A stretch of DNA of 64,000 nt from a virus. The position numbers were made by a program, and so were the translations under genes. The DNA is taken from the IMG/VR virus record IMGVR_UViG_3300037307_000719, positions 1 to 64,000 of that record. One strand, given 5' to 3'. The notes below the pieces were generated by a model that made no database searches, was not told the DNA's origin, and was given only the letters and a program-made list of their open reading frames with translations. Shown piece by piece: positions 19,712-57,070 of this stretch (its first letter is position 1; the number at the start of each line of letters is the position of its first letter).

Positions 19712-19716
19712 TTGAC
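19712..19716 (+). promoter_or_regulatory. TTGAC box, 19 nt before ATG 19731
   Basis: TTGACGCGGAGGGCGGGATATG. Confidence 0.6.
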
Positions 19717-19730
19717 GCGGAGGGCGGGAT

Positions 19731-19994
19731 ATGGCGGCGGAGAACTGGATGGAGATTTACCGGAGTTACGAGGCGGCGGAGCTGAATGATGAGATCGCGC
19801 AGTTGAAGAAGGACTTGCGCGGGGCGCTGACGGCTCAGGGGAGCGGGAGTGTGAGTCACCAGCGGGACGTGGTGATGCTGGAGAACCGGCTGCAAGCGGC
19901 GACGCGGGTGAAGAACGAGCGGGCGAACCGAGGCAAGGGGAACGGGATGAAGGGGACGGTGGATTTTTCGAGGAACGGCTGGGGGAGGTTGTGA
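19731..19994 (+). CDS. gpW-like head-tail joining protein (positional call)
   Basis: 87-aa ORF immediately upstream of the portal gene. A TTGAC box lies 19 nt upstream. Confidence 0.6.
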   Translation: MAAENWMEIYRSYEAAELNDEIAQLKKDLRGALTAQGSGSVSHQRDVVMLENRLQAATRVKNERANRGKGNGMKGTVDFSRNGWGRL

Positions 19995-20012
19995 GGAAAA
20001 AGGAGAAAGGAG

Positions 20013-20249
20013 ATGGTGATGCAGGCGTTTTTGGTGGTGGAGCTGGATGTGGACCGTGAGGCGCGGGTGGTGGTGGAGCCTGGGCGGGAGGCGTTGATGA
20101 TGGTGCATGAGGACATGCATTATCCGCTGGAGCAGCCGTGGGCGAGGCCGCCGACGGAGGCGGAGCGGGCGGAGGTGATGGAAAAGATCGGGCGTGGGGA
20201 GATGCGGGTGGTGAAGACGGGGGGTGGACTGACGATTGAGGATTGTTGA
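20013..20249 (+). CDS. Hypothetical protein
   Basis: 78-aa ORF with an AAGGAG Shine-Dalgarno sequence upstream. Confidence 0.55.
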   Translation: MVMQAFLVVELDVDREARVVVEPGREALMMVHEDMHYPLEQPWARPPTEAERAEVMEKIGRGEMRVVKTGGGLTIEDC

Positions 20250-20281
20250 TTTTGGATTTTTGATTGGGGAGATGGGGCGCG

Positions 20282-20286
20282 TTGAC
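20282..20286 (+). promoter_or_regulatory. TTGAC box, 19 nt before ATG 20301
   Basis: TTGACGCCGGGAGGGAGTCATG. Confidence 0.6.
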
Positions 20287-20300
20287 GCCGGGAGGGAGTC

Positions 20301-21992
20301 ATGCCGAAGTTGAATTTTCTGGAGCGGAGTTTGAGTGGAGTGGCTCCGCAGTGGGCGACGGATCATGCGGTGGCGAGGGCGAGGCTGAAGATGTTCGAGG
20401 CGGAGCCGGACTGGGCGAGCAGCTCGGTGAGGGGGAGGGCGGCGACGGCTGGAGACCAGGCGAACTCGGAAAGCTGGAAGAAGCAGCGGGAGCGGATCGA
20501 GGCGATCTGGGAGGGCCGGGCGATGGAGGAGAACCTGTGCGTGATCGCGGGGCTGCTGGACAAGATTTCGATGTACACCATCGGCAACCTGGAATACCGT
20601 CCGCAGACGGGGGACAAGGCGGCGGACCGGGAGTATGCGGATTATTTCCACGAGAAGTGCGGGGAGATCGATGTGACGGGGCGGCACCGGCTGAAAAAGC
20701 TGGCGGAGCTGGCGGTGCGGAGCATGTTCCGGGACGGGGAGTTCGGGTTTGTGGAGAGGCAGGAGGGACTGGACTACAAGCTCCAGGCGATCGAGGGGGA
20801 CCGAATCGGGAACCCGAACCAGCTCTCGCAGGCGGAGGACAACATCGGGGGGATCAAGATCGACATTGGGACGGGGCGGGTGACGGGGTATGAAATCCAC
20901 CGGAGGACGCGGACGAACCAATACCGGCTGGAGGGGACGATCGGGCCGGAGCGGTTCATCCACCTGTTCCGGCCGACGCGCTGCGACCAGTATCACGGGG
21001 TCTCGATTTTGAAGCCGGTGATTCCGCACGCGAAAGACCTCTACGAGTTGTTCGGCTATGAGAAGGTGGCGGCGAAGTTTGCGGCGAGTTTTGCGGGTTT
21101 GTTGAAGTCCGCCGATCCGTTCAGCCCGGACGGGGCAAACACGTGGGATACGCGGGGGACAGGCTCGAAGCTGCCAATGATGCAGGCGCAGGCAGGCACG
21201 CTGCAACGCATCAGCAAGGGGGAGGAAGTGGTGTTCGCGCCGGGGACGCAGCGGCCGAGCGGGGCGTTCATCGCGCTGGTGCAGGCGATTTTCCGTGAGA
21301 TCGCGCTGGGGACGAACCTGCCGTATGGGTTCATCTATGACATGGCGGTGTTTGGCGGGGTGACGGCGCGGCTGGAGACGCAACAGGCGGACCGGGTGTT
21401 CCAGCGTTTCCGGGAGATGCTGGTGGACACGATGCTGGAGCGGGTGAAGCGGAAGGTGCTGCTGGCGGGCATCGCCAAGCGGGAGATCCGGGCGGTGAAG
21501 ATGTGGAACAAGGGGAGCTGGAACTTCGGCGCGAGCCTGACAGGGGACATCGGCCATCAGGTGCAGGCGGACTCGACGATGGTGACCTTCGGGGTGAAGA
21601 CGCGGACGCGCTGGGCGGCGGAGCTGGGCGAGACGTTCGTGGACCTTGCGGACGAGGCGGCGAGCGAGATCGAAACCTTGCAACAGATTTCCGCGGAGCG
21701 GAACATTCCGCTGGAGCTGCTGAATGCGAGCCTGACGAACCCGACGGAGCTGGTGGCGAACCTGGCGAAGGCGCAAGCGGGGATTTCCGACGAGCCGGAG
21801 CCGCCGCCGGGGATGATCGGCCAGATTGGCGACAAGGGGGCGAAGACGGTGATTGATCTGCTGACGGCGGTGGGCCGGGGCGAGATCGACCGCCAGAGCG
21901 CGCGGATGACGCTGATTACGGTTCACGGGATGGAGCCGAGAGCGGCGGAGGCGGTGCTGCCGGACCCGATGAGGAGCCTACCGGCGGGGTAA
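20301..21992 (+). CDS. Portal protein (lambda-type)
   Basis: 563 aa. Position and overall pattern resemble lambda-family portals. TTGAC box plus GGGAGG upstream. Confidence 0.9.
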   Translation: MPKLNFLERSLSGVAPQWATDHAVARARLKMFEAEPDWASSSVRGRAATAGDQANSESWKKQRERIEAIWEGRAMEENLCVIAGLLDKISMYTIGNLEYRPQTGDKAADREYADYFHEKCGEIDVTGRHRLKKLAELAVRSMFRDGEFGFVERQEGLDYKLQAIEGDRIGNPNQLSQAEDNIGGIKIDIGTGRVTGYEIHRRTRTNQYRLEGTIGPERFIHLFRPTRCDQYHGVSILKPVIPHAKDLYELFGYEKVAAKFAASFAGLLKSADPFSPDGANTWDTRGTGSKLPMMQAQAGTLQRISKGEEVVFAPGTQRPSGAFIALVQAIFREIALGTNLPYGFIYDMAVFGGVTARLETQQADRVFQRFREMLVDTMLERVKRKVLLAGIAKREIRAVKMWNKGSWNFGASLTGDIGHQVQADSTMVTFGVKTRTRWAAELGETFVDLADEAASEIETLQQISAERNIPLELLNASLTNPTELVANLAKAQAGISDEPEPPPGMIGQIGDKGAKTVIDLLTAVGRGEIDRQSARMTLITVHGMEPRAAEAVLPDPMRSLPAG

Positions 21993-22051
21993 AAGCTGAA
22001 AAGCTGAAAGGCTGAAAAGCTGAAAGGCTGAAAAGCTGAAAGGCTGAAAGG
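21987..22051 (+). repeat. GCTGAAAN octamer array (direct, 7 units, most regular)
   Basis: The portal stop TAA lies inside GGGTAAAAGC. Units alternate GCTGAAAA and GCTGAAAG. Confidence 0.95.
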
Positions 22052-22063: not shown

Positions 22064-22068
22064 TTGAC
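22064..22068 (+). promoter_or_regulatory. TTGAC box, 19 nt before ATG 22083
   Basis: TTGACTTCCGGTGGCAGGGATG. Confidence 0.6.
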
Positions 22069-22082
22069 TTCCGGTGGCAGGG

Positions 22083-25000
22083 ATGGACCGATATGATGCG
22101 CGGAAGGTGACGCCGGTGGAGGCGAGTGCGAAGCTGGACGGGGTGTATGCGCGGGCGACGAGGGACGGGGTGTTTGCCAAGAGCGGGGTGCGGATGGCGG
22201 TGCCGCATGTGGAGAAGCGGCTGAAGCGGTATTTCCGGAAGCGGCCTGACGGGGCGCTGGAGGGGGAGCTGTGGCGAAGGAAGGCGGGGATCGAGCAGAT
22301 CGCGGGGGAGGCGCGGCGCGGCGGTGATGCGGCGAGGAAGCTGAAGCTGCATGTGTTTCCCGGGCAGGCGTCCCCTCCCCTGCCCTTTGGCGCGGTGCGG
22401 CGGGTGAAGGGGCACAAGGTCAAGGATGACGCGGGGGTGCAAAAGCGGCTGCGGAAAGCCTTGCGCAAGGGTCACGAAGGGGTGGTGGTGCGCGGAGCGG
22501 ACGGGGGGAAGGTGAAGCTGAAGCCGGAGATGGACCGGGAGTGGAGGGTCGAAGGTCTGAAAGTCGGAAAGTCGGGAGGTCTGAAGAGGAAGACGGTTCT
22601 GACGATGCGGACGGAGGACGGGAGGCCGTTCAAGGTTCAGGCGGGTGGCGGGGCGATGGGGGCGAAGGCGGGAGACCAGGTGACGGTGCGTTACTCGGGA
22701 TTGACACGGAGCGGGAAGCCGAAGGCGGCGGTGGCCGTGCGGGTGCGCAACGAGAAGGATTTTTCCATGAAACATTTCAAGACGAAGCCGGAGCTGACCG
22801 AGCGTGAGCGGGAGCAGGTTTCCAAGGACCGGAAGGCGCTGATGAAGGGGGCGGTTTTGACGGCTCTTGGCGGTGTGGCGGCGTATGGGGTTTTGCGGAT
22901 GCCGAAGTTCCGCAACGTGAAGGAAACGAGGACGCCCGCGGTGCTGCGGATGGGTCAGCGCGGGGTGGTAACGGGCCGGATGCACGGGCCGAAGCTGCCG
23001 GTGCCGGAGAAAGTGAAGGAAACGAGGACGCCCGCGGTGCTGCGGATGGGTCAGCGCGGGGTGGTAACGGGCCGGATGCACGGGCCGAAGCTGCCGGTGC
23101 CGGAGAAAGTGAAGGCACCGGGATTCAAAGAGGCGGCGCGGCTGAACAACGAGCGCAAGGGCGGGGTGAAGCGGCTGGTGAAGGCGGCGGAGCTGAAGCG
23201 GGAGCGGGCGTATGGGGCGCTGAAGCCACCGAGCGCGAAGCGGCTGGCCAAGCTGAACCCGGCGGTGCGGGCGCGCTACGAGCGGATGGACGAGGTGGCG
23301 CGGAGCAGCGGCCAACGGGGCTGGCTGCCAAGCGCGGCGACGGCAAAGAACACGAAGAAGGCACAAGGGCTGGGGGCGACCGGACAACTCAGCCCGGGCG
23401 AGGTGAAAAACGCGAGGAAGACCTGGCGGGTGAAACGGCAGAAGGCGCGGCAGGACTTGCTGCAATACCGGGAACAGAAGAATTTTTCCATGAAAACGCA
23501 GGACGACAGGAAGCAGGGATCAAACGGCGAGAAGCTGAAAAACGCGGCGGTGGCTGGCGGTGCGCTGGCCAGCGGCGGCGCGGCGGTCTATGGAGCGCGG
23601 CAGTGGGGCAAAACGAACAAGGCGCTGCGGGCTCACGCGGACGCTCTGGCGGCGCAACTGACGCCGAAGGAGATCGCCCGGCAAGTGGGCGCGGAGGTGG
23701 GCGGCAAGGCGAAGCGGACGCTGCGCGGGTATTTCCCGACCTTCATCAAGGCGGGGAAGAAGGTGAGCAAGGTGATGAAGACGCGGGTGAAGGGATTTGA
23801 AGAAAAGCCGCTGACGCATGAGGAGCTGGTGCAGCGGTATGGGCAAAGTCAGAAAAGCGGCAGACAGAAGAAAGAAGATCGGAAGCGCAAGCGCGGGTGG
23901 TTGTTTGAGACTCCTGCCTCGCGGTTGCTGAATTTTGGCAATGCGGAGCAGTGGCGGCGGGAGAGCGACCAGCGGTATGGGAGTCCGCTGAAGGGGGCGA
24001 TGGGCCTTGAGAAGGGGTATTACCGGAAGGACGCGGACGGTGAGCCGATCATCGAGGCACTGCCATTCCGGCAGGCGCAGGTCATCAAGAGCACCTACAA
24101 CAAGGCGAAGAAGGTGCAGAAATACGGCACGCGGGGTAGCGGCCTGCTGAAGGACGCGGGCGCGGTGGTGGCGGGGAGGCCAAGGGAAAAAGACCGCGCC
24201 GGGCGGGAGAAGAAACGCGAGTGGGAAAAGCCGTGGTTCAAGACGGCGGCGCGCAACGCGGCGATCACCGGGGCGATCCTGGTGGGCGCGAAGCATGTGG
24301 CGAAAGATCCGGAGAAGTGGCGCAAGCGGGTGAACAAGCATGTGATCCGGCCGATCAACCGGAAGGTGCCGGATTATTTGAAGGAGTGGGAGGAAGGGGT
24401 AAAAGCTGAAACGCTGAAAAGCGGAAATGCTGAAATGAAGAGTTTTGCGACTCCGGCGGGGAAGCTGTTGGGGAAGTTTGAGAAGCCCTTGCGCAAGGGT
24501 GGGCTGGGGAAGTTCCTGGGGCCGAGTGAGGTGCAGCGGACGGTGGCGAAGCAGCGCAAGGCACTGGCGGGCCGGGTGAAGGCGGCGGCGGCAAAGGGGA
24601 ATCAAAAGGCGGCGGCGATGGTGCCGCGAGTGAAGCATCACGCGGCGATGAAAGAGGCGGGCGTGAAGGCGTCGGAGCGGCGGCAGAAGGATGCCATCCG
24701 GGGCTTAAAAAAAGGCGCGGGGATCGCGGCTGGGGGTGCGGTGCTGGGCGGGGCGGCGATGAAGCTGCACGCGGACCAGCCGGAGGACCGGAAAGTGCGG
24801 GTGGGTGCGCGGTTCCGCAATGCTTTGGTGGGGGCGGCGGCGGGCTCTTATCTCGGGGCCGGTCTGCACACGGGCAAGAGCGGGTTCCGTGGGGCACGGC
24901 TTGGCGCGCTGGCGGGCGGGTTGATCGGCGCGGTGAGCAATCCGAAGCGCAAGCAGGTGATTGAGGATTTGCCGGTGGCGAGCTTTGCGGTAAAAGCTGA

Positions 25001-25506: not shown

Positions 25507-25511
25507 TTGAC
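25507..25511 (+). promoter_or_regulatory. TTGAC box, 19 nt before ATG 25526
   Basis: TTGACACACGGGAAAGGTCATG. Confidence 0.6.
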
Positions 25512-25525
25512 ACACGGGAAAGGTC

Positions 25526-26221
25526 ATGGCTCAGGAATCTTTGAAATCGTTGGAGGAACGCATGGACGAGCAGCTCCATGCGTTTGGGTATGGGGCATCC
25601 GAAGAGGAAACCCGGGGCAACCGCTCGGGACGACTGGTGGGGGCGGCGGCTGTCGGCACGGCGGGTGCGCTCGGGTTTGCGAAGCGCAAGCAGATCGCGC
25701 ACGGTGCGGGAGCCGGACTTGAAAAGGCCGGGGACATGCTGCGGCGCAAGGCGACGCTCGGGCCACGGGCGGCGGTGCTCAACCCGAACCGGATGCGCAA
25801 GGCGGCGGGACAGGCAGGAGACGTGCTGCTGCGCGGGGCGAAGAAGCTGAAAGGGTTTGGCGAGGTGTCCGCGCTGATCGAGCTGGCCGAGCGGGTGGCG
25901 GAGCTGGAGCTGGAGGCGGAGGAGGAGCTGATTGAGTTTGGCCGTATGGACGACATGCGTGCAAAAGCCAAAGGCTACGCCGGGCAGGCGAAGGCTGGTT
26001 ATGGCAAGGCTCGCAAGGCGGGGATGAGCATGGCTGCCGGGGCTGGTGCCCGTGCGGCGGATGGCGCGGCGCTGCTCAAGAAGTATCCAGGGCGTGCCGG
26101 TGGCATCGCAGGCGGGGTGGCCGCACTGGCAGGAGCCGGAGCGTATGGGATGCACCGCCACAAGAAAGCCAAGCGCCGGGATGAGCTGCTGGCGAGGTTC
26201 AAGAGCGGCAAGGCCGAATGA
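25526..26221 (+). CDS. Gly/Ala/Lys-rich protein with glycine-zipper segments (possible internal virion protein)
   Basis: 231-aa ORF with a TTGAC box 19 nt upstream. Its composition resembles the C-terminal modules of the preceding ORF. Confidence 0.75.
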   Translation: MAQESLKSLEERMDEQLHAFGYGASEEETRGNRSGRLVGAAAVGTAGALGFAKRKQIAHGAGAGLEKAGDMLRRKATLGPRAAVLNPNRMRKAAGQAGDVLLRGAKKLKGFGEVSALIELAERVAELELEAEEELIEFGRMDDMRAKAKGYAGQAKAGYGKARKAGMSMAAGAGARAADGAALLKKYPGRAGGIAGGVAALAGAGAYGMHRHKKAKRRDELLARFKSGKAE

Positions 26222-27748: not shown

Positions 27749-27753
27749 TTGAC
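27749..27753 (+). promoter_or_regulatory. TTGAC box, 22 nt before ATG 27771
   Basis: TTGACTTCGGGACGGGTGGTGTATG. Confidence 0.55.
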
Positions 27754-27770
27754 TTCGGGACGGGTGGTGT

Positions 27771-28952
27771 ATGAGCACGAACACCATTAGCAAGTTTCCG
27801 GCGGTTTATCATTTCGAGAGCGGGGCGAGCAGCCTGAACGTGGACAAGGAGAAGGGGGTGATCTATGGCGTGAGCCTGATTACTTCCGGCATCACGGCCA
27901 AGGGTCATGACCTTGAGGTGGATGGCAAGACGCTGGAGCAGATGCTCTCCTGCGCGGAGAAGAAGGGGAAGATCCCGGTGAAGTGGAATCACAAGACGGG
28001 AGCGGACGCGGTGAGCGGGTATTTGAGAAACTTCCGGATCGAGGGGCGCAAGCTGGTGGGGGACTGGAAGCTGCTGAAAAGCCACGAGCGGTATCAGCAC
28101 GCGCTGGAGCTGGCGAGCGAGATGCCGGAATGCCTTGGTCTCTCGACCTCGTTCCGAGGGGAGGACGAGGTGGTGGGTGACCGGAAGTTCGCACGCTGCA
28201 CGGAGCTGGTGAGCGCGGACCTGGTGGCGAGTCCGGCGGCGAATCCGAACGGGTTTTTCGAGGAAGGGCCGGGCGAGGTTGACAGGCAGGGAAAAGGCAT
28301 GGCCGAGAAAGCACAAACAAACAGCGCCGGAACCCCGTCCCAAGAGAAGGAATTCTCGCTTGCGGATGTCATGGCCGGTATTTCGCAAATCAATCAACGC
28401 ATCGACGGGATCGAGGAAAAGGTAACGTCCTTTGAAGCGTTTCAGGATGAAGTGATCCGGTCCTTTGAGGAGGGCATGGATGATGACGACGGGGGTGGAG
28501 AAGGCGCGGGCGGCGAGGCCGACGTGGAATTCTCCAGCGGTGCGGAAGCGCTGCAATACCTGCATGAGAAGCTCGCCTCCATCGAGGACGCGAAGGAAAG
28601 CGCGAAGATCGAGCGCGCCTTTGCCGCCTACGACGAGAAGGTCGAGGCACTCATCGAGCTGAACGAGCAACTCGCCACGGAGAACGCGGCGATGGCCGAC
28701 GCTCTGATGGAGTTCCAGGAAAAGACCGGACGCGAAGTGCATTTCAGCGTGGGCGCGGAAGGCGGCTACGAACACCAGCTTTCCGAGACAACTCCGGACG
28801 GACGCAAGCTCACCGAGTTCGAGGCCCGCTGCAAGCAGTTCGAGGCAAACGGCAAGAGCGAGACCGAGGCCATCACGCTGGCCATGAAGGAAGATCCGAA
28901 GCGCTACCAGAAGCACTTGCAGGCGCTCGGGATCATCAACCGCAGCCTGTAA
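27771..28952 (+). CDS. Prohead protease (HK97/S78-like) fused to a scaffold-like coiled-coil
   Basis: The N-terminus has IPVKWNHKTG (His motif) and GLSTSF (Ser motif). The C-terminal half is acidic coiled-coil. It lies upstream of the decoration and capsid genes. Confidence 0.8.
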   Translation: MSTNTISKFPAVYHFESGASSLNVDKEKGVIYGVSLITSGITAKGHDLEVDGKTLEQMLSCAEKKGKIPVKWNHKTGADAVSGYLRNFRIEGRKLVGDWKLLKSHERYQHALELASEMPECLGLSTSFRGEDEVVGDRKFARCTELVSADLVASPAANPNGFFEEGPGEVDRQGKGMAEKAQTNSAGTPSQEKEFSLADVMAGISQINQRIDGIEEKVTSFEAFQDEVIRSFEEGMDDDDGGGEGAGGEADVEFSSGAEALQYLHEKLASIEDAKESAKIERAFAAYDEKVEALIELNEQLATENAAMADALMEFQEKTGREVHFSVGAEGGYEHQLSETTPDGRKLTEFEARCKQFEANGKSETEAITLAMKEDPKRYQKHLQALGIINRSL

Positions 28953-30606: not shown

Positions 30607-30642
30607 TGAGGCAAAAGCAGAGGTAGCAGAGTAGAGGGCAAT

Positions 30643-30678
30643 GCGCCACCGGGAGGGACACCGGTGGCGCATTTTTTT
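30643..30678 (+). terminator. Rho-independent terminator after the major capsid gene
   Basis: 10-bp perfect stem GCGCCACCGG / CCGGTGGCGC followed by ATTTTTTT. Confidence 0.85.
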
Positions 30679-30687
30679 GCCGGATGA

Positions 30688-30692
30688 TTGAC
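30688..30692 (+). promoter_or_regulatory. TTGAC box, 21 nt before ATG 30709
   Basis: TTGAC-A-CCCTTGCGCAAGGG-C-ATG. Confidence 0.55.
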
Positions 30693-30693
30693 A

Positions 30694-30707
30694 CCCTTGC
30701 GCAAGGG
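30694..30707. repeat. Palindrome CCCTTGCGCAAGGG (14/14)
   Basis: Lies between the TTGAC box and ATG 30709. Confidence 0.95.
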
Positions 30708-30708
30708 C

Positions 30709-31050
30709 ATGGGCAGCGCGTTTTGGGAAAACTTCGATGCGGCCAACCAGGTTGCCGTGGACGTGATGGGCGAGGAAGTCCTGCTGGACGGACATTCGGT
30801 AACGGGAGTGGTGGACCCGCAAAGCTACCAGGAAGGAGCGGCGGTGGGAGGACGCAAGGGCATCCTGCGCTGCGGCATTCTGGTGACGCGGGAGGTGATG
30901 GATGCGGTGCCGCCACGGGACGGCATGGTGGTGGAGCTGCGAGGGCTGATCGGGCGGGTGGAAAGCTGGGAGCCGCTCGGGCCGATGGCCGGGGTGCTGC
31001 TCAATGTGGGGCCATACAACCGCTGGAGCGGCGAGGTTCCCGGGGTGTGA
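30709..31050 (+). CDS. Head-tail connector / head completion protein (putative)
   Basis: 113 aa from ATG 30709. The leader is TTGAC box, then palindrome, then ATG. Confidence 0.65.
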   Translation: MGSAFWENFDAANQVAVDVMGEEVLLDGHSVTGVVDPQSYQEGAAVGGRKGILRCGILVTREVMDAVPPRDGMVVELRGLIGRVESWEPLGPMAGVLLNVGPYNRWSGEVPGV

Positions 31051-31069: not shown

Positions 31070-31074
31070 TTGAC
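31070..31074 (+). promoter_or_regulatory. TTGAC box, 19 nt before ATG 31089
   Basis: TTGACACAGCCCGGGAGGCATG. Confidence 0.6.
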
Positions 31075-31088
31075 ACAGCCCGGGAGGC

Positions 31089-33326
31089 ATGGATGTTTTT
31101 CTGAATCGCGGAACGGGTTTGCTGGTGCGCGGGGTGGGTCTCAGTGCGGTGGTTTCATCCATGACCGTCAAGGCGCGGGACACGCTGGTCCTGGATGTGT
31201 GGGTGTTTCGCGGCAGCGAGCTGGAGGATCTTTCCGCCGGGAGCAGTCTGGCGTTTCTGGTGAAAACCGGAGTGAAGAGCACGGACGCGACGCTGGCCGT
31301 CGCGGAAGGATGGGAGCAGGTGGAGGACGAGACAGGGCACTACCGCGCGGCGCTGAACCTGAATACCGTGCCATTGGTGGCCGCCGTCGCGGATCTGGAC
31401 GAGATTTCCGCCGTGGGCGAGCTTTCGTGGAGTGCGGACGGGGTGGCCTGGCAAAGCAGCAACACGGTGCGGGTGACGATCGCCAACGACGTGTTCAAGG
31501 GATCGGAGGGAACGCCGGACGAGCTGCCGACTCCGGATGACAACTGGGTTGCCCATGGCCATCCGCAGACGCTCACGGCGGAGCAGAAGCTCACCGCCCG
31601 CGAGAACATCGGGGTGGAGCCGATCATCCGCACGGCGGCGGAGGGGAGTCCGGATAACAGCGTGACACCTACCGCAATCGGGCAGAAATGCTTTGTGGGT
31701 GATACTCCTCCGTATGACGAGGTGTGGGTGGCGGAGAGTATCAGTCCGCCTGTATGGGTGCAGGATGTTGCGTCTGGCGGCCCAGCCGAGACCACGTCTT
31801 CTATCCTCTTAAAACTTCAAGGAGCCGCGCTTAATCCAGACAAGATTGGGGCTGAGTTTCTCACTCAGGGTGTAACTAATATTATTTCGATTGAAGAAAG
31901 TCGTGCGCTTGAGGCCGCTGATTTCAATAAACTTGTTTATTGTGAAACGGCAGGTCTTGTTCTTACATGCCCTCCCCTTGCGTCAAACGGAACAATCCTG
32001 CTTGCCCCGATCCAGACAGTTGTGTTGGATGGAACAGTCAATCTCTATGATGTGGCTGGTTCGTCAGTGTCCTCAGTAAGTCCAGAGGACGGGGTTGTGG
32101 CCTTGGAATACTCTACCGTTGCCGGATGGAAAATACGCAGACTGCACACACCAGCGGAGACCACAGCTTCAACTCTCCGACTCCTTATTGGCGAGGCCGC
32201 TGTCGAAAACAGAATCGGGTCTGAGTATCTACCGGATGCGCTTGTTCTTGCAGACGGCATCCCGAGTTCCGTTATCACCAGACCACAGTCCATAGGGTAT
32301 GATCTTGCCGGAGGGGTGATTGAACACGATGGCACCATGCAATTTGTCGTTGAGAGCCGTTTTGGGATATTTGTTTTTGAGGTTCTGGTGGTGACTGGCA
32401 ATGACTGGGAAGTCTGGGCCGAAGATCTGGTCACAGCCGCCATGGCGGACGGGCAATTCACCCAAAACCTTGAGATGTCTCTTGTTGGGTCCGTGCTTAC
32501 CATCGGCGCGTTGAGTCCTGCTTTGTATGATCCGAGCATGAGGCTTACCGTGTCACTGCGCGATGGTGCGACCATGGGGTATCCCGGTATTGATGTCATC
32601 CTCACCAACTATGGAGAAGTATTGCCGCTTTTGGGAGAGCCGGTTGGGAGACTTTGCTATGTCCAAGACCCGGGAGTCTGGTATCGGTGGGACGGCACGG
32701 AATGGGTGCCTGATTCTTCAGCAATTATCATCCGCACTGCTGCGGAAGGGAACCCTGACAGCCCGAACATTCCCGACCAGTATGTGCTGACCGGGACCAT
32801 GCTGGACGCAAGCAACAACCCCATTCCGGTTCCGGTGACGCTGGACCGGGTTGCGGATGCCCAAGGACATCCAAGCTGGGAAGGTGGAGGCTGGCGGATC
32901 ATGTGGGCAAACAACGACTGGCTTATCTTTTTGATTGATGGCGGCTACTCGGCCATCACATCGGCGCTAAGTGGGGAACTTCCCCATGATCCGCCAACAT
33001 TTGGGTGGATCTTTGACGAAGGTTCCGGTGATCCCGTGTTGACGCCGCAGCCGATCACTCCACTGGCCATCGGTCAGAAATGCTTTGTTGGTGATGCCGC
33101 GCCGTATGACTCGTCATGGACCGCACAGAGCTTGAGCCCGGTTGTGTGGGTGCAGGACTCGGTTGGTCCTGCCGGGCCGGAGGGTCCGGCGTTGAGTCTC
33201 GGTAGCGCCCTGACCCTTTTCGGGCTGACCTCCTACGCCGATTTGACCGCCGCCAACGCGGCCCTTCCGATTGGTCGCATCTACTACGATCAGACACTCA
33301 ACACCCTTAACGTAACCACCGCATGA
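31089..33326 (+). CDS. Fibre / receptor-binding protein with a duplicated domain and a low-GC central insert
   Basis: 745 aa. The segment AIGQKCFVGD..PYD..W....S.SP.VWVQD occurs twice. The central roughly 0.9 kb has atypical composition. Confidence 0.85.
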   Translation: MDVFLNRGTGLLVRGVGLSAVVSSMTVKARDTLVLDVWVFRGSELEDLSAGSSLAFLVKTGVKSTDATLAVAEGWEQVEDETGHYRAALNLNTVPLVAAVADLDEISAVGELSWSADGVAWQSSNTVRVTIANDVFKGSEGTPDELPTPDDNWVAHGHPQTLTAEQKLTARENIGVEPIIRTAAEGSPDNSVTPTAIGQKCFVGDTPPYDEVWVAESISPPVWVQDVASGGPAETTSSILLKLQGAALNPDKIGAEFLTQGVTNIISIEESRALEAADFNKLVYCETAGLVLTCPPLASNGTILLAPIQTVVLDGTVNLYDVAGSSVSSVSPEDGVVALEYSTVAGWKIRRLHTPAETTASTLRLLIGEAAVENRIGSEYLPDALVLADGIPSSVITRPQSIGYDLAGGVIEHDGTMQFVVESRFGIFVFEVLVVTGNDWEVWAEDLVTAAMADGQFTQNLEMSLVGSVLTIGALSPALYDPSMRLTVSLRDGATMGYPGIDVILTNYGEVLPLLGEPVGRLCYVQDPGVWYRWDGTEWVPDSSAIIIRTAAEGNPDSPNIPDQYVLTGTMLDASNNPIPVPVTLDRVADAQGHPSWEGGGWRIMWANNDWLIFLIDGGYSAITSALSGELPHDPPTFGWIFDEGSGDPVLTPQPITPLAIGQKCFVGDAAPYDSSWTAQSLSPVVWVQDSVGPAGPEGPALSLGSALTLFGLTSYADLTAANAALPIGRIYYDQTLNTLNVTTA

Positions 33327-38986: not shown

Positions 38987-38987
38987 C
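38983..38987 (+). promoter_or_regulatory. GTGAC box variant, 19 nt before ATG 39002
   Basis: GTGACATGGGCTGAAGGGTATG. The TGA within the box is the endolysin stop codon. Confidence 0.45.
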
Positions 38988-39001
38988 ATGGGCTGAAGGG
39001 T

Positions 39002-39639: not shown

Positions 39640-39640
39640 C
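39636..39640 (+). promoter_or_regulatory. TTGAC box, 19 nt before ATG 39655
   Basis: TTGACATGCCGGGTGAGGCATG. The TGA within the box is the upstream gene's stop codon. Confidence 0.6.
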
Positions 39641-39654
39641 ATGCCGGGTGAGGC

Positions 39655-40023: not shown

Positions 40024-40095
40024 GAATTTCGTAGCAGGGATAAAATGCGAAAAGTGCGAGGGAGCGCGGTTTGAGGAAGCCGCGCTCCCTTCATT

Positions 40096-40100
40096 TTGAC
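40096..40100 (+). promoter_or_regulatory. TTGAC box, 21 nt before ATG 40117
   Basis: TTGAC-A-CCCTTGCGCAAGGG-T-ATG. Confidence 0.55.
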
Positions 40101-40101
40101 A

Positions 40102-40115
40102 CCCTTGCGCAAGGG
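40102..40115. repeat. Palindrome CCCTTGCGCAAGGG (14/14)
   Basis: Lies between the TTGAC box and ATG 40117. Confidence 0.95.
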
Positions 40116-40116
40116 T

Positions 40117-40737
40117 ATGAGGAACCGGGATCGATTCTGCGAGGCGTTCGCCCATGTGGGGCATGTGGTGATGGGGCGGCGGCTGGAGCCGTTTTCGCTG
40201 CGGCACCGGTTCTGGCTGGAGGCGATGGAGAGCCCACTGGTGGCTGGCGGGGTGGTGGGGCTGATGGATTTGGAGCTGGCGAGCCGGATTTGCGCGATGC
40301 CCTTCGCCCGGCTGAACCGGGATGTGCCGGAGATGCTGACACGCGGGCCGCGCTGGCGGGACAAGCTGCGTTATTTGTGGTGGATCTGCCGCGGGGAGGC
40401 GGCGCGGGAGTATGAGAAATTCCAGGATTACTTTCTGGATTACGGCTGCCCTCCGGCGACGCATGGAGCCGGGCCTGCAACCAACAACGGGAAACGGTAC
40501 GAGGCGATGCCGGGCCTGCTGGCACTCATCACGGCACTGGTAAGGGGAAGCGGTTGGGAACCGGAAACGGTGTGGGCACTCGCCCCCGGCGCTGCGGAGT
40601 GGTATCTGGTGGGAATCTTTTCCCACCGTGGCGTGGACATGAGGCTCAAGACGGAGCACGACGAGGAATTCGAGGAAGGCATGAGGCGGGAAATGGCCGG
40701 AAAGCGGGAGTCCGTGGAATCAACCGCAGAGCGTTGA
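40117..40737 (+). CDS. Tail assembly chaperone-like protein (positional)
   Basis: 206 aa from ATG 40117, directly upstream of the tape measure gene. No obvious G/GT-type second frame was seen. Confidence 0.65.
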   Translation: MRNRDRFCEAFAHVGHVVMGRRLEPFSLRHRFWLEAMESPLVAGGVVGLMDLELASRICAMPFARLNRDVPEMLTRGPRWRDKLRYLWWICRGEAAREYEKFQDYFLDYGCPPATHGAGPATNNGKRYEAMPGLLALITALVRGSGWEPETVWALAPGAAEWYLVGIFSHRGVDMRLKTEHDEEFEEGMRREMAGKRESVESTAER

Positions 40738-40738
40738 C
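40734..40738 (+). promoter_or_regulatory. TTGAC box, 19 nt before ATG 40753
   Basis: TTGACGCCGGGCGGATGGCATG. The TGA within the box is the upstream gene's stop codon. Confidence 0.6.
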
Positions 40739-40752
40739 GCCGGGCGGATGGC

Positions 40753-43700
40753 ATGGCGGCGAATCCGAGTGGAGCTGGCGGCGGACTGCCGCCAAATGCA
40801 GGACAACAAGCAGGACAACAGGCGGCGCAGGCGGCGCAACAAGCGGCAGGGGCATACAGCGGCGGCTTGAAAAAGCTGACGGCGCAGTGGGGAGACTTCG
40901 CCGACGCTCTGGTGGCTCCGGCGATCACGCTGGCGGCGGGCGGTAGCAAGGTGCAGGCGGCGTGGAGCGGCGTGCGGGCGGTGCTGGAGGCGAAGGTGCT
41001 GGGGCCGCTCGGGCTGGTGACGGGAGCCTCCGCCGGACTGCTGCTGGTGACGCGCAGGCTGATCGCGGAATGGCGGACGATGGGTGTCCAGAGCGCGAAG
41101 GCCATCGAGACGCTGACGCTGCAATTCAAGCCCCTGCTCGGCAGTATGGAGCTGGCAAAGCAGCGGGCGCGGGAGATTTTCGATTTCTCGGTAAAGACGC
41201 CGTTCAAGTTCCCTGATCTGGCGGAGGGCAACAAGATCCTGCAAAGCCTGACGCGAGGCGCGCTGGCCAGCAAGGATGGGATGACGCTGGTGGGTGATGC
41301 GGCCTCGGTGGCGGGCGCGGACTTTGCCGATACGGCGCGGCAGGTGGGGCGGCTTTACGACGGCCTGATGAGCGGGCGTCCGGTTGGCGAGGCGGCCTTC
41401 CGGCTGCAAGAGCTGGGCCTGATTTCCGGGCAGACGCGGACACAGATCGAGGCGATGCAGGCGGCGAATGCGGCGGGCAGCGCGGTATGGGCGGTGGCGC
41501 AGAAAGACCTGGAGCGGGCCAAGGGGGCGATGGAGGTGCTGTCCCAAAGCGTGGCAGGTCTGGAAAGCACGTTTGAGGACACGCGGCAACAGCTTGAAGC
41601 GGGATTCGGCCAAGGGTTCATGGAGGGAGAAAAGGCGGCGATCCGCAGCGCGACAGCCGCGATGGAGGCGATGACTCCGGTGGCGGAGGTGCTGGGGCGG
41701 AACCTCGGCCAGCTCGATACGTGGTGGGAGCAGCTCAAGAGCAAGCTGGTGGGGGTGGCGACTGGCAGCAAGGTGTTCACCAGCGCTATCACCGGAGCGG
41801 GGCTGGCGGTGGTGGGTTTCTCGGCAGCGGTGCTGCTGGCGGCTGGCACGCATCTGCTGCGGTTTCTCGCCGGGGTGCGCAGCGTGGCAGCCGGGCAGGC
41901 GGCTCTGACGGCGGCGACGATGGCGGCTACGGGAGCGCAGACGGTGGCGGGGCTGGTAGGGACGCAGCTCGCCAGCGCGTATGCGGCTCTGGTCACCGCG
42001 CTCAAGGCGGTGGCGGCAGGCAGCTATCTGAGTGCGGCGGCAAACCTGAAGGTGGCGGCGGCGGAAACCATCGCGGCGTTCCGGACGAACGCTTTGGCGG
42101 CCTCCCAGGTGGTTCTGAAAGGGGCATTCCTGCTGGCACGCACGGCGGCGCTGGTTCTGGCTGGCACGCTGCGGGCGGTGGCGGCGGCGATGGTGCTGAC
42201 GCCGATTGGAGCGTTTTCCACGGCCTTGGTGGTGGCGGGCGGAGCCTTGTTGAGTTTCTACACCTCGATGAAAAAAGCGCGGGAGGAGCTGGCCGCCTAT
42301 GCTGCCAGCGCGCAGGCGGTGGTGGAGAACATGGACGCGCAGGCAAGAGCGATCCGCACGGTGGCCGACCTGCAACGGGCGGAGGCGGACATCGTGCGGG
42401 AGCTGACTCAGGCATACCTTGAGCTGGAGCAGGCCAAGGCGGGTGGTGACGAGAAGCGGGCGGAGATTGCCCGGCGCAAGATCGATGAGCTGCTGGCGAC
42501 CCAGCGCAAGGTGCGCGGCTTGAGCGGCAGCACGGAACTCAGCGAAGAGCAAATGGCACGGGAGGACGCCCGGAAGGAACTCGCCAAGGAGGCTCGCAAG
42601 GCGCGGGATGAGGATGAGGCGGGACGTGGCGCGGCCAGCGCGGTGGCGGTGGCGCGGCGGCAGATGGAGGAAAGCGAGGCGAAACGGCAGGCAGCAAGGC
42701 TGGCGGAAGAGGAGGAAAAACGGGTGGAGCAAGCCAAGGCGGCCTTGCGGCGGCGGATGGAGGATGAGGCCAAACGGGAGGAGGCATTGCGGTCCCGCCA
42801 GGCGGCCTTGAAAGGGGAGATTCTTGAGAGGCAGGCGGTGGCGAGGAGCACTGCGGTGGGAGGACCGGGGGACCAGTCCGGCGCGGCATGGAAGGCGACC
42901 TTGGCGGCGGATGAGGCGAAGAAGCTGCAAACCGCGCTGGACGAGGTGGAGCGGGCCTTGGGCAACATCGAGGAAGCGCGGCGGGCCAACGCGGAACAAG
43001 AAGCACGGGTGGCGCTGGAAAGCGCGAGCGAGCTGGCGGTGCTCAATGAGAAGCTGGCGATTTATGCCCGCATGGAGGGCGCGGTGCAGGCCGTTGCGGA
43101 CCAGCGGAAGAGGCTCGGTGAGGCGGAAAAAAACGAAAGCCTGAATGCCGGGAAACGGGCGGAGGCGGTGGAACAGGCCCAGGCGGCGCTGCGGCAGGCG
43201 ATGGAAGAACAGTCCCGCGCCGAAGCTCTGGCGGCCGCTACGGGCGTGAAGGGCTGGCGGGCCATCGACCAGCAGAACAACCAGCGGCGCGTGCAGGAAA
43301 TCAAAACCGAGCGGGAGGATGATCTGAGCCCGGTGAAGCGCGAGGAAGAGGCGCGGCGGCTGCGGGATGCGGAGCTGGCCCTTGCGCAAGGGCGGGTGGA
43401 AACGGAGAGCCGGATCGCGGACTTGCGGCTGAAGGGCTACGAGCGCGAGGCTGCGATGCTGGAGTTTGCCAAGCGGGACTTGAGCCTCCGTTACCAAAGG
43501 AAGCGCATCGATGATGATGGCTACGCAAAAGAAAGGGCGATTCTGGCCGAGCGCGAGGCGGCGCTGAAACGCGAGGCGGACAAAACGCGGGCGGAGCTGA
43601 ACGGAGCGCTGACCATGGGCAACCTGCGGCGGAGGGAGGAAGCCGCACGCAGCGCGGGCAGGGTGGAGGAAGCGGAGGCGCTGCGCAAGCAGGCGGAGGC

Positions 43701-44265: not shown

Positions 44266-44270
44266 TTGAC
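44266..44270 (+). promoter_or_regulatory. TTGAC box, 19 nt before ATG 44285
   Basis: TTGACACAGGAGCAGAGGTATG. Confidence 0.6.
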
Positions 44271-44284
44271 ACAGGAGCAGAGGT

Positions 44285-44989
44285 ATGGAGGAACGCAAGT
44301 ATGGGGCCGCGAACGGGGCGATCCTGGGCCACGCCGGGGAAATTCATGTTTCGCGGGAAGGTCTGTGGACCGGGAGTTGCCGATACCGGGTGCCGAAAGG
44401 GCGGTATGATCTGATGCCGAAGATCGGGAGCGTGCATCCTTACGCGGAGTTTCTGTTCGTGGAGAAGCTGCGCGTCATCTACACGGAGGGGTTGTGGACC
44501 GTGTTGTGTGAGTATGCGGGAGCCAGTTTCACCTCTTCCGGGGTAACCGATGCCACGTATGAGCTGAGTCCCGGCACGGGGAGCGAACCGATCGAAATCC
44601 ATCCGGAGTTTGACGAGTTCGCGGGCACTCCCAGCGCGCCAAACGAGGATAACAAGCCCTTGTTCCGTGATCCGGTGACGGGATTCCCCTCGACGGATGA
44701 CGAGGTGGCGGAGTTTGACCGGTTCCAGAGCGGAAGCCCGCTTTACGGGGTGAAGTCCTACATCTGCCAGAACAATACCGTTTGGACGAAGCGGTGGACG
44801 CAGAAGAACAAGCCGGAAGACGAGCCACTGAAGGTGGTGAGTTCCCCGCCCGGCCCGGCGCCGGAGTATGGCGGTGCCTACAACTGGCTGCAATACCCGG
44901 TGGCTTACAGCGTGCGGGGGAATGTTTATTCCTGTTCCCAGAACTGGCTTTCCAGCGGGCCGAAGGGGTGGTCAACCGTGATTTACTGA
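44285..44989 (+). CDS. Distal tail / baseplate protein (positional)
   Basis: 234-aa ORF after the tape measure gene. TTGAC box 19 nt upstream. Confidence 0.75.
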   Translation: MEERKYGAANGAILGHAGEIHVSREGLWTGSCRYRVPKGRYDLMPKIGSVHPYAEFLFVEKLRVIYTEGLWTVLCEYAGASFTSSGVTDATYELSPGTGSEPIEIHPEFDEFAGTPSAPNEDNKPLFRDPVTGFPSTDDEVAEFDRFQSGSPLYGVKSYICQNNTVWTKRWTQKNKPEDEPLKVVSSPPGPAPEYGGAYNWLQYPVAYSVRGNVYSCSQNWLSSGPKGWSTVIY

Positions 44990-55341: not shown

Positions 55342-55942
55342 GTTCGCTTTTTTGGTGGGTGGATGGGGTGAGGCCGAGAGAGCGTTGCCACGCTTTGACG
55401 ACTTTGGAGATGGCGGAGGCGGTGATGTGGTTTTGGCGGGCATATTCGCGTTGGCAGGGAAGTCCGTTGAGGGCGGCGAGCTTGGCGGCGAAGGCGAGCC
55501 CGGCGCTGTTGATTTTGGGGTTCTTGGATGAGAGAAGGCCGCCGACGATGATCTGGAGGTAGTTGGCCTTTTCGACCCGCACGGCGGTATCCACCTCGGT
55601 TTGGTGCCAGCGGAGAATCTCGCCGGCCTGCTGCGGGGTGATGGAGAAGCGGTCCGCGATGACGCTTTCGGGGGTGTCGATGACGGTCATGTCGGGCTCG
55701 CATTTGGCTAGGGATGAGTCTGCGATGTCCGAGACGGAGAAGGGTGAATGGCCGCCGACATCCGTTGAATCGTCTGGAGCGGAGTCCACATTGAGGCGGC
55801 GGACTTTTTCCCGCTCTTCCTCGGATAGTGAGGCGATCCACTCGGCGTGGGCTTTTTTCGCCTCGTTGTGGAGGGCTCTGGCGTGGGCCTCGTAGCTGCC
55901 CGTCGCCCTTGTGCAAGGGTGTTTGTCAGGCGGCTTTTTCAT
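55217..55942 (-). CDS. Hypothetical regulatory-region protein (possible HTH)
   Basis: 241 aa from ATG 55940-55942. The C-terminal segment ITASAISKVVKAWQRSLG is HTH-like. Confidence 0.65.
   Translation of the reverse strand: MKKPPDKHPCTRATGSYEAHARALHNEAKKAHAEWIASLSEEEREKVRRLNVDSAPDDSTDVGGHSPFSVSDIADSSLAKCEPDMTVIDTPESVIADRFSITPQQAGEILRWHQTEVDTAVRVEKANYLQIIVGGLLSSKNPKINSAGLAFAAKLAALNGLPCQREYARQNHITASAISKVVKAWQRSLGLTPSTHQKSEHACKIYSQVGKTRHWRNKKISAQTATALLSKIRRPATPNAN
55906..55919. repeat. Palindrome variant CCCTTGTGCAAGGG
   Basis: Inside gene 55217..55942. Confidence 0.9.
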
Positions 55943-56129
55943 TGGCACAGGATGCTCTTTGGGTGAATTCCTGCTCCAAGGTGGCCCATTCGATCGCCTC
56001 TTCTGGGCTGGAACAGGTGGCCGTCCTCATGGCTCGCAAGAAGTCGAGCACTTGAGTCAGAACCTTCTTTTTCGGGGTGGTTTGGGCCAATTTCTCGTCT
56101 TTGCTCTCTTCGGTTTGGGTGGGTGTCAT
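55926..56129 (-). CDS. Small Cro-position protein
   Basis: 67 aa starting MTPTQTEESK. It is the first gene leftward of the AT-rich divergent region. Confidence 0.5.
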   Translation of the reverse strand: MTPTQTEESKDEKLAQTTPKKKVLTQVLDFLRAMRTATCSSPEEAIEWATLEQEFTQRASCANEKAA

Positions 56130-56242
56130 GACGTTGTTGCCTTTGGAATAAAGGCCAAATGTGGGAAGATTTATCAAGCTCGAATAAATAAAATTTGCAC
56201 TTTTCCCAAGTGTTGGCATTTTGTCCCTTTCTCCCACTCGTT
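56130..56242. promoter_or_regulatory. AT-rich divergent promoter/operator region (immunity switch, putative)
   Basis: 113 bp of much lower GC lie between divergent genes 55926..56129 (-) and 56243..56644 (+). Confidence 0.5.
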
Positions 56243-56644
56243 ATGAAATTCCCTAATTACCTAAAATATTTCGTTGATACTGAGAAGTATCGGTTGGTTT
56301 CACTTGCCAAAAGGTCGAATGTTCACGCCTCGGACTTGTCAAAAGTTCTAAACAAAAAGAAAACCTGTGGGCTGAAAATGGCGATCCAGGTCATCGAGGG
56401 GCTGGAGCCGGAGCATCAGGCGCAGGCGTTGATGCTTTGGATCGCGGATCAGATTCCACCGCAATTCCAGCATTTGCTCTACATCGTGCGGGCCGATGAC
56501 AGGAACGATAAGCCGAAAGATGTGGATATTCGCACGATTGAGGGATCAATCCAAGTGTTGGAGAAGAAGGCGGAGACCAACGATGCTTTGCGCACTGTTT
56601 TGCTGAATCTGGCACAGGCGTTTGCCATAGAGGATGCTGGCTAA
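56243..56644 (+). CDS. XRE/CI-like HTH repressor (putative)
   Basis: 133 aa. HTH-like segment LVSLAKRSNVHASDLSKVLNKKK. A terminator follows. Confidence 0.7.
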   Translation: MKFPNYLKYFVDTEKYRLVSLAKRSNVHASDLSKVLNKKKTCGLKMAIQVIEGLEPEHQAQALMLWIADQIPPQFQHLLYIVRADDRNDKPKDVDIRTIEGSIQVLEKKAETNDALRTVLLNLAQAFAIEDAG

Positions 56645-56689
56645 TCCCCTCCCCCGCACCCCTTTGGGTCTATTTTCCGACCCCTTCCC

Positions 56690-56728
56690 GACCTCCGCAG
56701 ACCCTTGCTCTCGGAGGTCTTTCTGTTT
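56690..56728 (+). terminator. Rho-independent terminator after the repressor-like gene
   Basis: Stem GACCTCCG / CGGAGGTC followed by TTTCTGTTT. Confidence 0.75.
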
Positions 56729-57065
56729 CAACGCATAGTGTATTTTGGGGAATAGGTGGAAAGGGTGGTACTGGGTTTTTGGACCTAATAAAGAAAAACC
56801 TGAAAGGTTCGGATTTGTGTCTTTGTCTCGTTTTTCGACGCCTTTCTAAAACCCAAGACCACCCAAGCCCTCCTTGTCTCATTATCCAATCGCAGCAAGA
56901 AAAAACATCCACCACCGTAAAAGGAATCTATTTACAATCAGTGCCTTGCAGGTTGCGAAGCATAGCTTGGTATCGCTATGCGGGGGGTGTTTTTGGATGT
57001 CTCATTTTGGGGGCAACCCCTGCCCATGACCCCTGCTGGGGAGACATGAGGGAGGCAATGTCGCG

Positions 57066-57070
57066 TTGAC
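57066..57070 (+). promoter_or_regulatory. TTGAC box, 20 nt before ATG 57086
   Basis: TTGACATAGAGAGAGAGGCGATG. Confidence 0.55.

Follow-up and report, generated by a model that had tools for sequence, protein, structure and literature searches.

A GTTGAC(A) box at a fixed distance from late-gene start codons in a family of Verrucomicrobiota phages: a candidate single-element late promoter

Several short signals have been described in front of phage genes or close to start codons. The T4 late promoter, TATAAATA, is read by gp55, gp33 and the sliding clamp, and the epsilon enhancer of T7 gene 10 is a short RNA element located ~16-24 nt before the AUG; it raises initiation, and pairing with 16S rRNA has been proposed for it. 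The AR9 promoter is AACA-N6-TA/G and that of phiKZ is TATG (PMC5312081). At leaderless genes the promoter boxes lie close to the start codon, the bacterial -10 element at ~6-8 nt and the archaeal TATA box at ~22-26 nt (PMC6028130, PMC12340547), and the accepted mark by which leaderless transcription is recognised is a motif tightly positioned with respect to start codons (PMC6028130). Start-associated sequences (SAS/ESAS) are known from cluster K mycobacteriophages (PMC3203893). Here we describe a TTGAC box that precedes plus-strand start codons at a nearly constant distance in the virus record IMGVR_UViG_3300037307_000719 of IMG/VR, of which the first 64,000 nucleotides were analysed (hereafter the window). 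The window (~60% GC) makes up nearly all of a 64,939-bp contig and represents a temperate tailed phage of ~65 kb without a cultured relative.

A preliminary description of this DNA had listed 13 boxes, and all of their coordinates and spacings proved correct on re-checking (Table 1): nine, including one with the variant GTGAC, begin 19 nt before the ATG, one begins 20 nt, two begin 21 nt and one begins 22 nt before it. The pattern TTGAC-N14-ATG is found eight times in the window, always on the plus strand and always at a gene start, compared with 1.28 ± 1.18 matches expected on both strands, and none of 100 shuffles reached eight. When the spacer is allowed to vary (TTGAC-N14-17-ATG), there are 14 matches against 6.35 expected, a number likewise reached in 0 of 100 shuffles. 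We have identified a 14th box, absent from the earlier list; it begins at 28279 and has an in-frame ATG 20 nt further on (28299), within the gene at 27771-28952. The boxes all belong to head, tail and terminase genes, which agrees with the earlier proposal of a strand- and late-gene-specific signal, and the statement that no minus-strand gene has the motif holds for real genes, the sole minus-strand match (46054) lying in an antisense open reading frame (ORF) inside a plus-strand gene. The GTGAC case (39002) is the weakest member, as its 68-aa ORF scores low for coding. Of the three cases in which the TGA inside the box was said to be the stop codon of the upstream gene, two are certain (39636 and 40734) and the third rests on doubtful ORFs (56779-57069 or 30684-31073).

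Portal relatives with 31-85% identity are frequent in metagenomes and IMG/VR, and those found in named genomes belong to Verrucomicrobiota: Luteolibacter (68% identity), Akkermansiaceae, Oceaniferula, Verrucomicrobium and Chthoniobacter. Among GenBank phages megablast gave no match and the best portal identity was ~25%; a TerL search of genome contigs gave no match. About 100 related loci were gathered and were reduced to a non-redundant set of 75 loci (1.24 Mb). Across this family the motif is G-TTGAC-a, the base at -1 being G in 79% of instances and that at +5 being A in 52%, and GTTGAC(A) is located 19-23 bases upstream of ~40% of the structural-gene start codons. Among the 169 copies of GTTGACA on the portal strand of the non-redundant set, 123 lie 18-23 nt before an ATG or GTG that opens an ORF, whereas only 2 of the 10 copies on the other strand are so positioned and sixty composition-matched heptamers average 3. 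The distances from TTGAC to an ATG that opens an ORF on the portal strand peak at 19, 20, 21, 22 and 23 nt with 46, 120, 85, 64 and 29 cases, respectively (344 in total); the same distances on the other strand have 1-6 cases each (16 in total). The sequence itself is close to all-or-none: exact TTGAC occurs 276 times where 25 are expected, and one-mismatch variants are not enriched in the family, the best of them being GTGAC (32 versus 20 expected). In the logo of 289 unique instances nothing is conserved from -50 to -2, and no -10-like element follows downstream. The spacing is specific to the lineage, with a standard deviation of 0.72 nt within a phage versus 1.16 nt overall; 19 nt prevails in the window, many phages have 20 nt in all cases, others have 21-22 nt, and in some phages 9 of 9 boxes share one distance.

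The box is also specific to certain genes. The conservation check came out in favour of the preliminary description, in that the box is kept upstream of orthologous genes in relatives. TTGAC is present at 17-24 nt in 53 of the 62 orthologous regions upstream of the first late gene, and the box precedes 4 of 4 orthologues of the gene starting at 31089 and 5 of 6 of that starting at 30709, while it is found at none of the 12 scaffold genes and none of the 32 major capsid genes (0 of 44 together; P = 6×10−21 for gene specificity). Upstream of the first late gene, nothing but the box is conserved between -100 and -2, and sigma-70-like promoter scores in this region equal those of shuffled sequence (7.59 vs 7.60). 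The divergent intergenic region in front of this gene is only 61-68 bp long in some relatives; a late promoter must lie there. Box genes and box-less late genes also differ in how they join their upstream neighbours. No annotated upstream gene overlaps the start of a box gene (the nested start after 28279 excepted), the minimum gap being 16 nt, whereas among late genes lacking a box about half share an ATGA overlap with the stop codon before them and the rest have A/C-rich, Shine-Dalgarno (SD) or repeat-built leaders. This pattern suggests that the boxes delimit ~12 units of 1-7 genes.

The signal does not appear to be borrowed from the host. In three chromosomal loci of Verrucomicrobiota (including Luteolibacter), TTGAC is found at 17-24 nt in only 1 of 57 genes, and this single match lies inside a tandem repeat; the difference from the window (13 of 29 genes) is significant (P = 9×10−7). 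The structural genes of Moulinsart, a cultured and unrelated Akkermansia phage, have no boxes. Thus, the box is not a host gene-start signal and belongs to the phage family. SD-like 4-mers are present at -16 to -5 in 14% of the family's box genes and 11% of host genes, and host leaders are C/A-rich and G-poor, in agreement with the report that some Verrucomicrobia are SD-scarce (PMC10783764). TTGAC is not complementary to the CCUCC anti-SD sequence and lies 14-17 nt from the ATG, so it behaves as an SD site in neither respect. The GGAGG-like tract between box and ATG, earlier described as a purine-rich SD sequence, has to be given up as such and is no part of the signal, since it lacks conservation and SD sequences are rare in the hosts. 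Spacer GC tracks genome GC, and the A/T-rich spacers of low-GC relatives indicate that the GGAGG-like tracts of the window reflect its G-rich plus strand. Three further ideas about the spacer were rejected: a G-rich spacer as a functional structure (its GC merely tracks that of the genome), a start site anchored to the box and marked by the G enrichment near the ATG (this enrichment is tied to the ATG instead), and a GAC...GTC hairpin closing the spacer (seen in few instances).

Of the three mechanisms proposed earlier, the evidence agrees best with the promoter that gives very short leaders, and on the available sequences we tentatively favor the view that the box marks a single-element, phage-specific late promoter giving leaderless or near-leaderless mRNAs. 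The motif, its invariance and spacing, its gene-specific conservation, its absence from host genes and its location behind terminators and within the divergent region are direct observations; from them we infer action at the DNA level, the point at which RNA would start and the kind of factor that would read the box. GTTGAC(A) would be the core, and apparently the sole, conserved element of a late promoter specific to the phage family, recognised in double-stranded form by a phage-directed transcription machinery. Because neither a phage RNA polymerase nor a sigma factor was detected, the reader would most plausibly be the host RNA polymerase together with a small phage factor. RNA synthesis would begin a fixed distance downstream, at or a few bases from the A of the ATG, and each box would open a unit of 1-7 genes, the first cistron being translated from a leaderless or near-leaderless 5′ end and the later ones by stop/start overlap or from A/C-rich unstructured leaders. 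Lineage-specific palindromes beside or inside the spacer may act as operators that shut the box promoters.

A promoter of this kind could explain a number of features. The fixed spacing would follow from transcription starting at or just before the ATG, and the box at the first late gene would be the promoter that is otherwise missing nearby. The all-or-none sequence would be explained as in late promoters of the T4 and AR9 types, and both the overlapping operators and the indifference of the spacer to structure would be expected. Boxes squeezed in behind terminators are explained as well: the boxes at 30688 and 40096 start 5-13 nt after terminators of -31 and -29 kcal/mol, leaving 27-35 nt before the ATG, and in the family a terminator lies directly upstream of 9 of 321 boxes, compared with 4 of 3000 random positions (P = 3×10−7; ~21-fold).

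Several observations weigh against this promoter. In GC-rich members there is no -10-like or AT-rich melting element between box and ATG. Sequence searches against Pfam, PHROGs, NCBIfam and PDB detected no phage sigma factor, RNA polymerase or known RNA polymerase-binding protein, with many small ORFs left unassigned by them, and no T7-like RNA polymerase domain was found. The first late protein (19731-19994, 87 aa), which is the family's most widely conserved small protein (82 loci), was considered as the reader and rejected: its AlphaFold model is a plain helical hairpin (pLDDT 77) with no helix-turn-helix (HTH) or gpW signal, and its uL29-like matches are non-significant. Avoidance of orphan boxes is not borne out by the counts, as sense-strand GTTGACA without a start codon at the proper distance is not depleted (46 versus ~48 for control heptamers), so that a promoter made of these 7 bp and nothing more would be active frequently, unless further context is needed. 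Upstream ORFs tend to end at or before the box, 51 of them at the in-box TGA and 41 within 20 nt upstream, with 17 reading past it, which a signal acting on DNA only does not demand. Lastly, a GGY (RRT in low-GC relatives) at -3 to -1 is tied to the ATG and not to the box.

Together, these points keep alive an RNA-level signal similar to SAS, which we regard as possible if somewhat doubtful. UUGAC(A), ~14-17 nt upstream of the AUG on a polycistronic late mRNA, would be bound by a phage or host factor (a protein, a ribosomal component or a segment of rRNA) that recruits or licenses ribosomes in an SD-poor host, or that sets a low level of translation for low-copy virion proteins. Such a signal could account for the fixed distance to the start codon and the ATG-anchored context, for orphan boxes that are not depleted, and for an upstream stop in or abutting the box in ~27% of cases with rare read-through, box and spacer often forming the whole intercistronic region. 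Box genes encode low-copy proteins, the capsid and scaffold genes are always without a box, a box precedes a nested in-frame internal start resembling that of lambda Nu3 in gene C, the phage has an initiator-like tRNA, and there are precedents in the T7 gene 10 epsilon enhancer and the SAS of cluster K mycobacteriophages (PMC3203893). However, a separate late promoter would be needed before the first late gene, where nothing else conserved or sigma-70-like is present, and the boxes 5-13 nt behind terminators of -29 to -31 kcal/mol would rely on read-through. Nor is the box complementary to the anti-SD sequence or used by host genes. Structure in the leaders is a further difficulty. In several lineages stable palindromes fill the spacer and end 0-1 nt before the ATG, and the minimum free energy around the start is -9.2 kcal/mol for box genes versus -1.3 kcal/mol for the capsid and scaffold genes, whose leaders are G-poor and unstructured; a hairpin reaching the AUG would hinder a leadered ribosome-binding site. 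A narrower form, translational coupling through the in-box TGA, does not hold as a general function, since the gene with the best-conserved box, the first late gene, in many cases lacks a same-strand neighbour upstream.

A site for a DNA-binding late regulator (activator or repressor), with the true promoter weak and unrecognisable, seems improbable. The box is invariant, short and asymmetric, and TTGACA, the same sequence, is recognised by sigma region 4 and by HTH domains. It also adjoins operator-like palindromes, and candidate regulators are encoded nearby, an LmbU-like protein (54556-55341) and an HTH protein (56243-56644). Yet a regulator would not need a start-codon distance fixed to a standard deviation of 0.7 nt, and no second conserved element is seen.

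The palindrome in question is the perfect 14-bp sequence CCCTTGCGCAAGGG, present at 26 sites in the window (e.g., 3951, 19626, 30694, 40102 and 59410) where ~0.7 are expected. It takes up the spacer of two boxes and lies directly beside others. Other lineages have CCGTTACGTAACGG or CCCTTACGTAAGGG at the same positions, with symmetrical changes that include the central positions and thus speak for a DNA-binding protein acting as a dimer rather than for a hairpin in RNA. From their sequence and arrangement the CCCTTGCGCAAGGG copies look like a multi-copy operator or 'stoperator' set, for which the conserved inverted repeats of phiC31 and the stoperators of L5 offer a comparison. Sixteen copies lie between genes, frequently 1-2 nt behind a stop codon or beside a start codon, and the LmbU-like and HTH proteins are also candidates for binding them. 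The same palindrome is found in the related loci L006, L090, L091 and L016, and variants of it in L008, L009, L012, L081 and L014. At the minus-strand start 53126 of a primase-like gene (palindrome at 53129-53142), the layout TTCAAA-CCCTTGCGCAAGGG-GC-ATG mirrors the TTGACA-palindrome-C-ATG of boxes 30688 and 40096, the hexamer differing at two positions.

Still less probable is an RNA-processing site, at which a sequence-specific endoribonuclease would cut the late polycistronic RNA at or near UUGAC and free individually stable or translatable mRNAs. The box is strand-specific, short, invariant and just upstream of cistrons, as such a site would be, and some boxes adjoin hairpins that could stabilise the upstream fragment. 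But neither the precise spacing to the ATG nor the box before the first gene would be explained, a cut at the internal box 28279 would sever the mRNA of the full-length protein, and no nuclease candidate was found; this mechanism, also among those put forward at first, has gained no specific support.

An ordinary signal or chance (a sigma-70 -35 hexamer, an SD-type site or an artefact of the G-rich strand) is effectively refuted: TTGACA is the -35 consensus, and at a distance of 19 nt the TG of the ATG falls where the TG of an extended -10 element follows a 17-bp spacer, but there is no -10 hexamer, the 20-22 nt spacings of relatives break this coincidence, the box does not pair with CCUCC and few box genes (14%) have SD-like 4-mers, and shuffles and composition-matched heptamers exclude chance. 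The box was therefore rightly set apart from a sigma-70 -35 element at the outset: no -10 hexamer lies 16-18 bp downstream, and sigma-70 geometry would put the transcription start inside the ORF. The hexamer is TTGACA-like without A/T conservation at index 22-29 of the logo, a sigma-70 reading would imply 18-20 bp spacers in most relatives, and a promoter scan gave 2 matches versus 2.0 expected, none of them at boxes. The degeneracy of the hexamer in natural sigma-70 promoters is not matched either, as one-mismatch boxes are not enriched. Sigma-54, ECF, Bacteroidetes -33/-7 and T7/SP6-like promoters were also considered and rejected, there being no second element at the required distances.

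Returning to the late promoter with leaderless mRNAs, we noticed that a tRNA-Met(CAT) gene is located inside the late block (26231-26306, plus strand), 10 nt after a protein gene and without a box; tRNA-Met genes are also found in the related loci L010 (17274-17348), L011 (6170-6241) and L047 (21001-21077). This tRNA has hallmarks of a bacterial initiator: a C1xA72 mismatch, A73 and an anticodon stem closed by three G-C pairs. Its 11:24 pair is elongator-like. Leaderless initiation is limited by initiator tRNA, and an initiator-like tRNA-Met in the late block fits leaderless mRNAs as circumstantial evidence. The tRNA genes were also considered as a translation-independent test of the box and set aside as uninformative, since they directly follow protein genes and have no box. 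A wider proposal would be that the late regulon of the family uses a new kind of promoter, with an invariant 7-bp element ~20 bp upstream of the start site and no -10 or -35 partner, that a small phage protein retargets the host RNA polymerase to it, and that the leaderless mRNAs are translated with the help of the phage initiator tRNA in an SD-poor host; in this full form we judge it unlikely.

The internal box at 28279 deserves separate mention. Of 45 distinct orthologues of the gene at 27771, ~26 also have an in-frame box at this boundary between domains, down to 31% identity, which suggests that 27771-28952 probably holds a nested gene, starting at 28299, for the acidic, coiled-coil-like C-terminal 217 aa. 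Lambda Nu3 initiates internally within gene C, and the internal box and ATG that split the 393-aa head protein into an N-terminal domain and this C-terminal part resemble the C/Nu3 arrangement.

The boxes and the other features of the window are collected in Table 1. Gene calling used strand-specific models. The GC skew is ~+0.3 over the whole strand (1-64000) regardless of gene direction, third codon positions being ~60% G in plus-strand genes and ~64% C in minus-strand genes, and this skew confounds a codon-based gene caller; the major capsid gene departs from the pattern (G3 0.40, C3 0.47). The minus-strand ORFs of the early region are real according to homology. The terminase genes (57086-59409) and the portal/head block (19731-49209) both have boxes and, if the 64.9-kb contig is circular, are separated by ~25 kb of early genes on the opposite strand. 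Upstream of the box at 57066 there are ~420 nt of non-coding sequence, and a stretch of opposite-strand genes (~25 kb) lies between this box and the other late genes. Directly after the portal gene, a 1102-aa protein (22083-25391) kept in 67 loci has an N-terminal domain (residues ~7-227) similar to minimal ATP-dependent DNA ligases (PHROG 114, E = 6×10−12; PDB 8u6x, E = 1×10−5; and a weak Pfam OB-domain match).

Table 1. Boxes, terminators and genes of the window. Positions are those of the 64,000-nt stretch; box intervals include the spacer and the start codon.
Feature	Position	Strand	Start codon	Remarks
Replication/early genes	1-19.6 kb and 59.4-64 kb	-		Products: methylase, MoxR-like AAA protein + DUF2201/VWA, sliding clamp, pol-beta-like protein, helicase
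Structural block	19.7-49.2 kb	+		Includes tail fibre, endolysin and 1169-aa protein
Box (GTTGAC)	19712..19733	+	19731	19 nt before ATG of first late gene (87 aa)
Box	20282..20303	+	20301	19 nt before portal-gene ATG; kept in close relatives
Lambda-family portal gene	20301	+	20301
Box	22064..22085	+	22083	19 nt before ATG of 1102-aa protein; 8 tandem GCTGAAA-type repeats precede
Box	25507..25528	+	25526	19 nt before ATG of 231-aa gene; inverted GCTGAAA / TTTCAGC arrays precede
Box	27749..27773	+	27771	22 nt before ATG of 393-aa head gene
Internal box	28279..28301	+	28299	20 nt before ATG; nested start, acidic C-terminal 217 aa (probable)
Scaffold gene	28992	+
Major capsid protein gene	29632	+
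Strong intrinsic terminator	30640..30683	+		After major capsid gene; -31 kcal/mol; few bases before next box
Box	30688..30711	+	30709	21 nt before ATG of 113-aa gene; spacer is the palindrome CCCTTGCGCAAGGG (30694-30707)
Box	31070..31091	+	31089	19 nt before ATG of 745-aa gene; palindrome copy 31052-31065, 4 nt upstream
Variant box (GTGAC)	38983..39004	+	39002	19 nt before ATG of doubtful 68-aa ORF; least certain
Box	39636..39657	+	39655	19 nt before ATG of 122-aa gene; TGA is stop of upstream gene (ends 39639)
Strong intrinsic terminator	40060..40095	+		-29 kcal/mol; T-run enters next box
Box	40096..40119	+	40117	21 nt before ATG of 206-aa gene; spacer is CCCTTGCGCAAGGG (40102-40115)
Box	40734..40755	+	40753	19 nt before ATG of 1169-aa gene; TGA is stop of gene 40117-40737
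Box	44266..44287	+	44285	19 nt before ATG of 234-aa gene
SSB and primase/polymerase genes	49.2-53.1 kb	-
Integrase gene	53342
Box	57066..57088	+	57086	20 nt before ATG of small terminase subunit; kept in L001, L003
TerS gene	57086		57086
TerL gene	57694

Tandem repeats of 7-8 nt, TTTCAGCN or its complement GCTGAAAN and also CTCACTG, form leaders and intergenic spacers in this genome (e.g., 21993-22050, 25395-25495, 26310-26345 and 27700-27735), and at 25395-25495 opposed arrays make a long inverted repeat. They are also found upstream of the minus-strand starts 4373, 7566, 8258, 9357, 11820, 13250, 13714, 15168 and 62806, and many minus-strand genes have the layout (TTTCAGCN)n-TTTTACCCC-ATG without an SD sequence. 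The repeat units of relatives differ (CATTCAC, CACT and AATTCAAA), with tandem repeats also near 17960 in the related locus L105, and the TTTCAGC repeat is found upstream of a host gene as well.

The expression signals of Verrucomicrobiota and their phages are almost uncharted, and the motif is a statistically overwhelming cis-element that defines a late regulon in dozens of uncultured phages with 39-65% GC. As a practical rule, it allows gene starts and nested genes to be called in these genomes and transcription units to be delimited, and the 7-bp sequence could be used as bait for the factor that reads it. If the box is a single-element promoter of leaderless mRNAs, it would represent a new promoter architecture and tie phage initiator tRNAs to leaderless translation; if it acts in RNA, it would be a second, independent case of start-associated sequences of the mycobacteriophage type, in a host largely without SD initiation.

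Literature searches directed at phages of Verrucomicrobia, at leaderless promoters in phages and at start-associated sequences gave no description of this motif and yielded analogues only. SAS are, like the box, short asymmetric repeats in one orientation at the start codons of a subset of genes (PMC3203893). Both are conserved across subclusters or lineages, absent from the host and strongly biased to ATG, and both sometimes contain the upstream stop and are often paired with lineage-specific inverted repeats. They share no common sequence, however: SAS is a 13-mer, GGGATAGGAGCCC, with an SD core, located 3-7 bp from the start of non-structural genes (PMC3203893), whereas the box is a 5-7-mer without SD complementarity, located 14-17 nt from the ATG of structural and packaging genes in phages of an SD-poor host. 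With the promoter boxes of leaderless genes it shares the sharp localisation at the first genes of units whose downstream genes use another initiation signal, but its logo is neither TANNNT nor TATA-like, its distance of 19-23 nt is that of neither class, and the box is specific to the phages, the host making no use of it. The late promoters of T4, AR9 and phiKZ are likewise very short and near-invariant, stand before many late genes, are conserved across a phage group and are unrelated to host promoters. Internal copies of such single-element promoters can yield N-terminally truncated proteins, comparable to the nested start described above, and a sliding clamp, part of the T4 late system, is also encoded in the window. 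These promoters differ in their variable distances to start codons (untranslated regions of 26-491 nt in AR9) and in their known dedicated sigma or RNA polymerase genes, whereas the box has a fixed distance to the ATG and no gene of that kind was detected. The epsilon element of T7 gene 10 has a similar position, but it acts together with a strong SD sequence, and the box genes have no conserved one. The box resembles SAS, the boxes of leaderless genes and single-element late promoters, yet departs from each of them in both sequence and distance.

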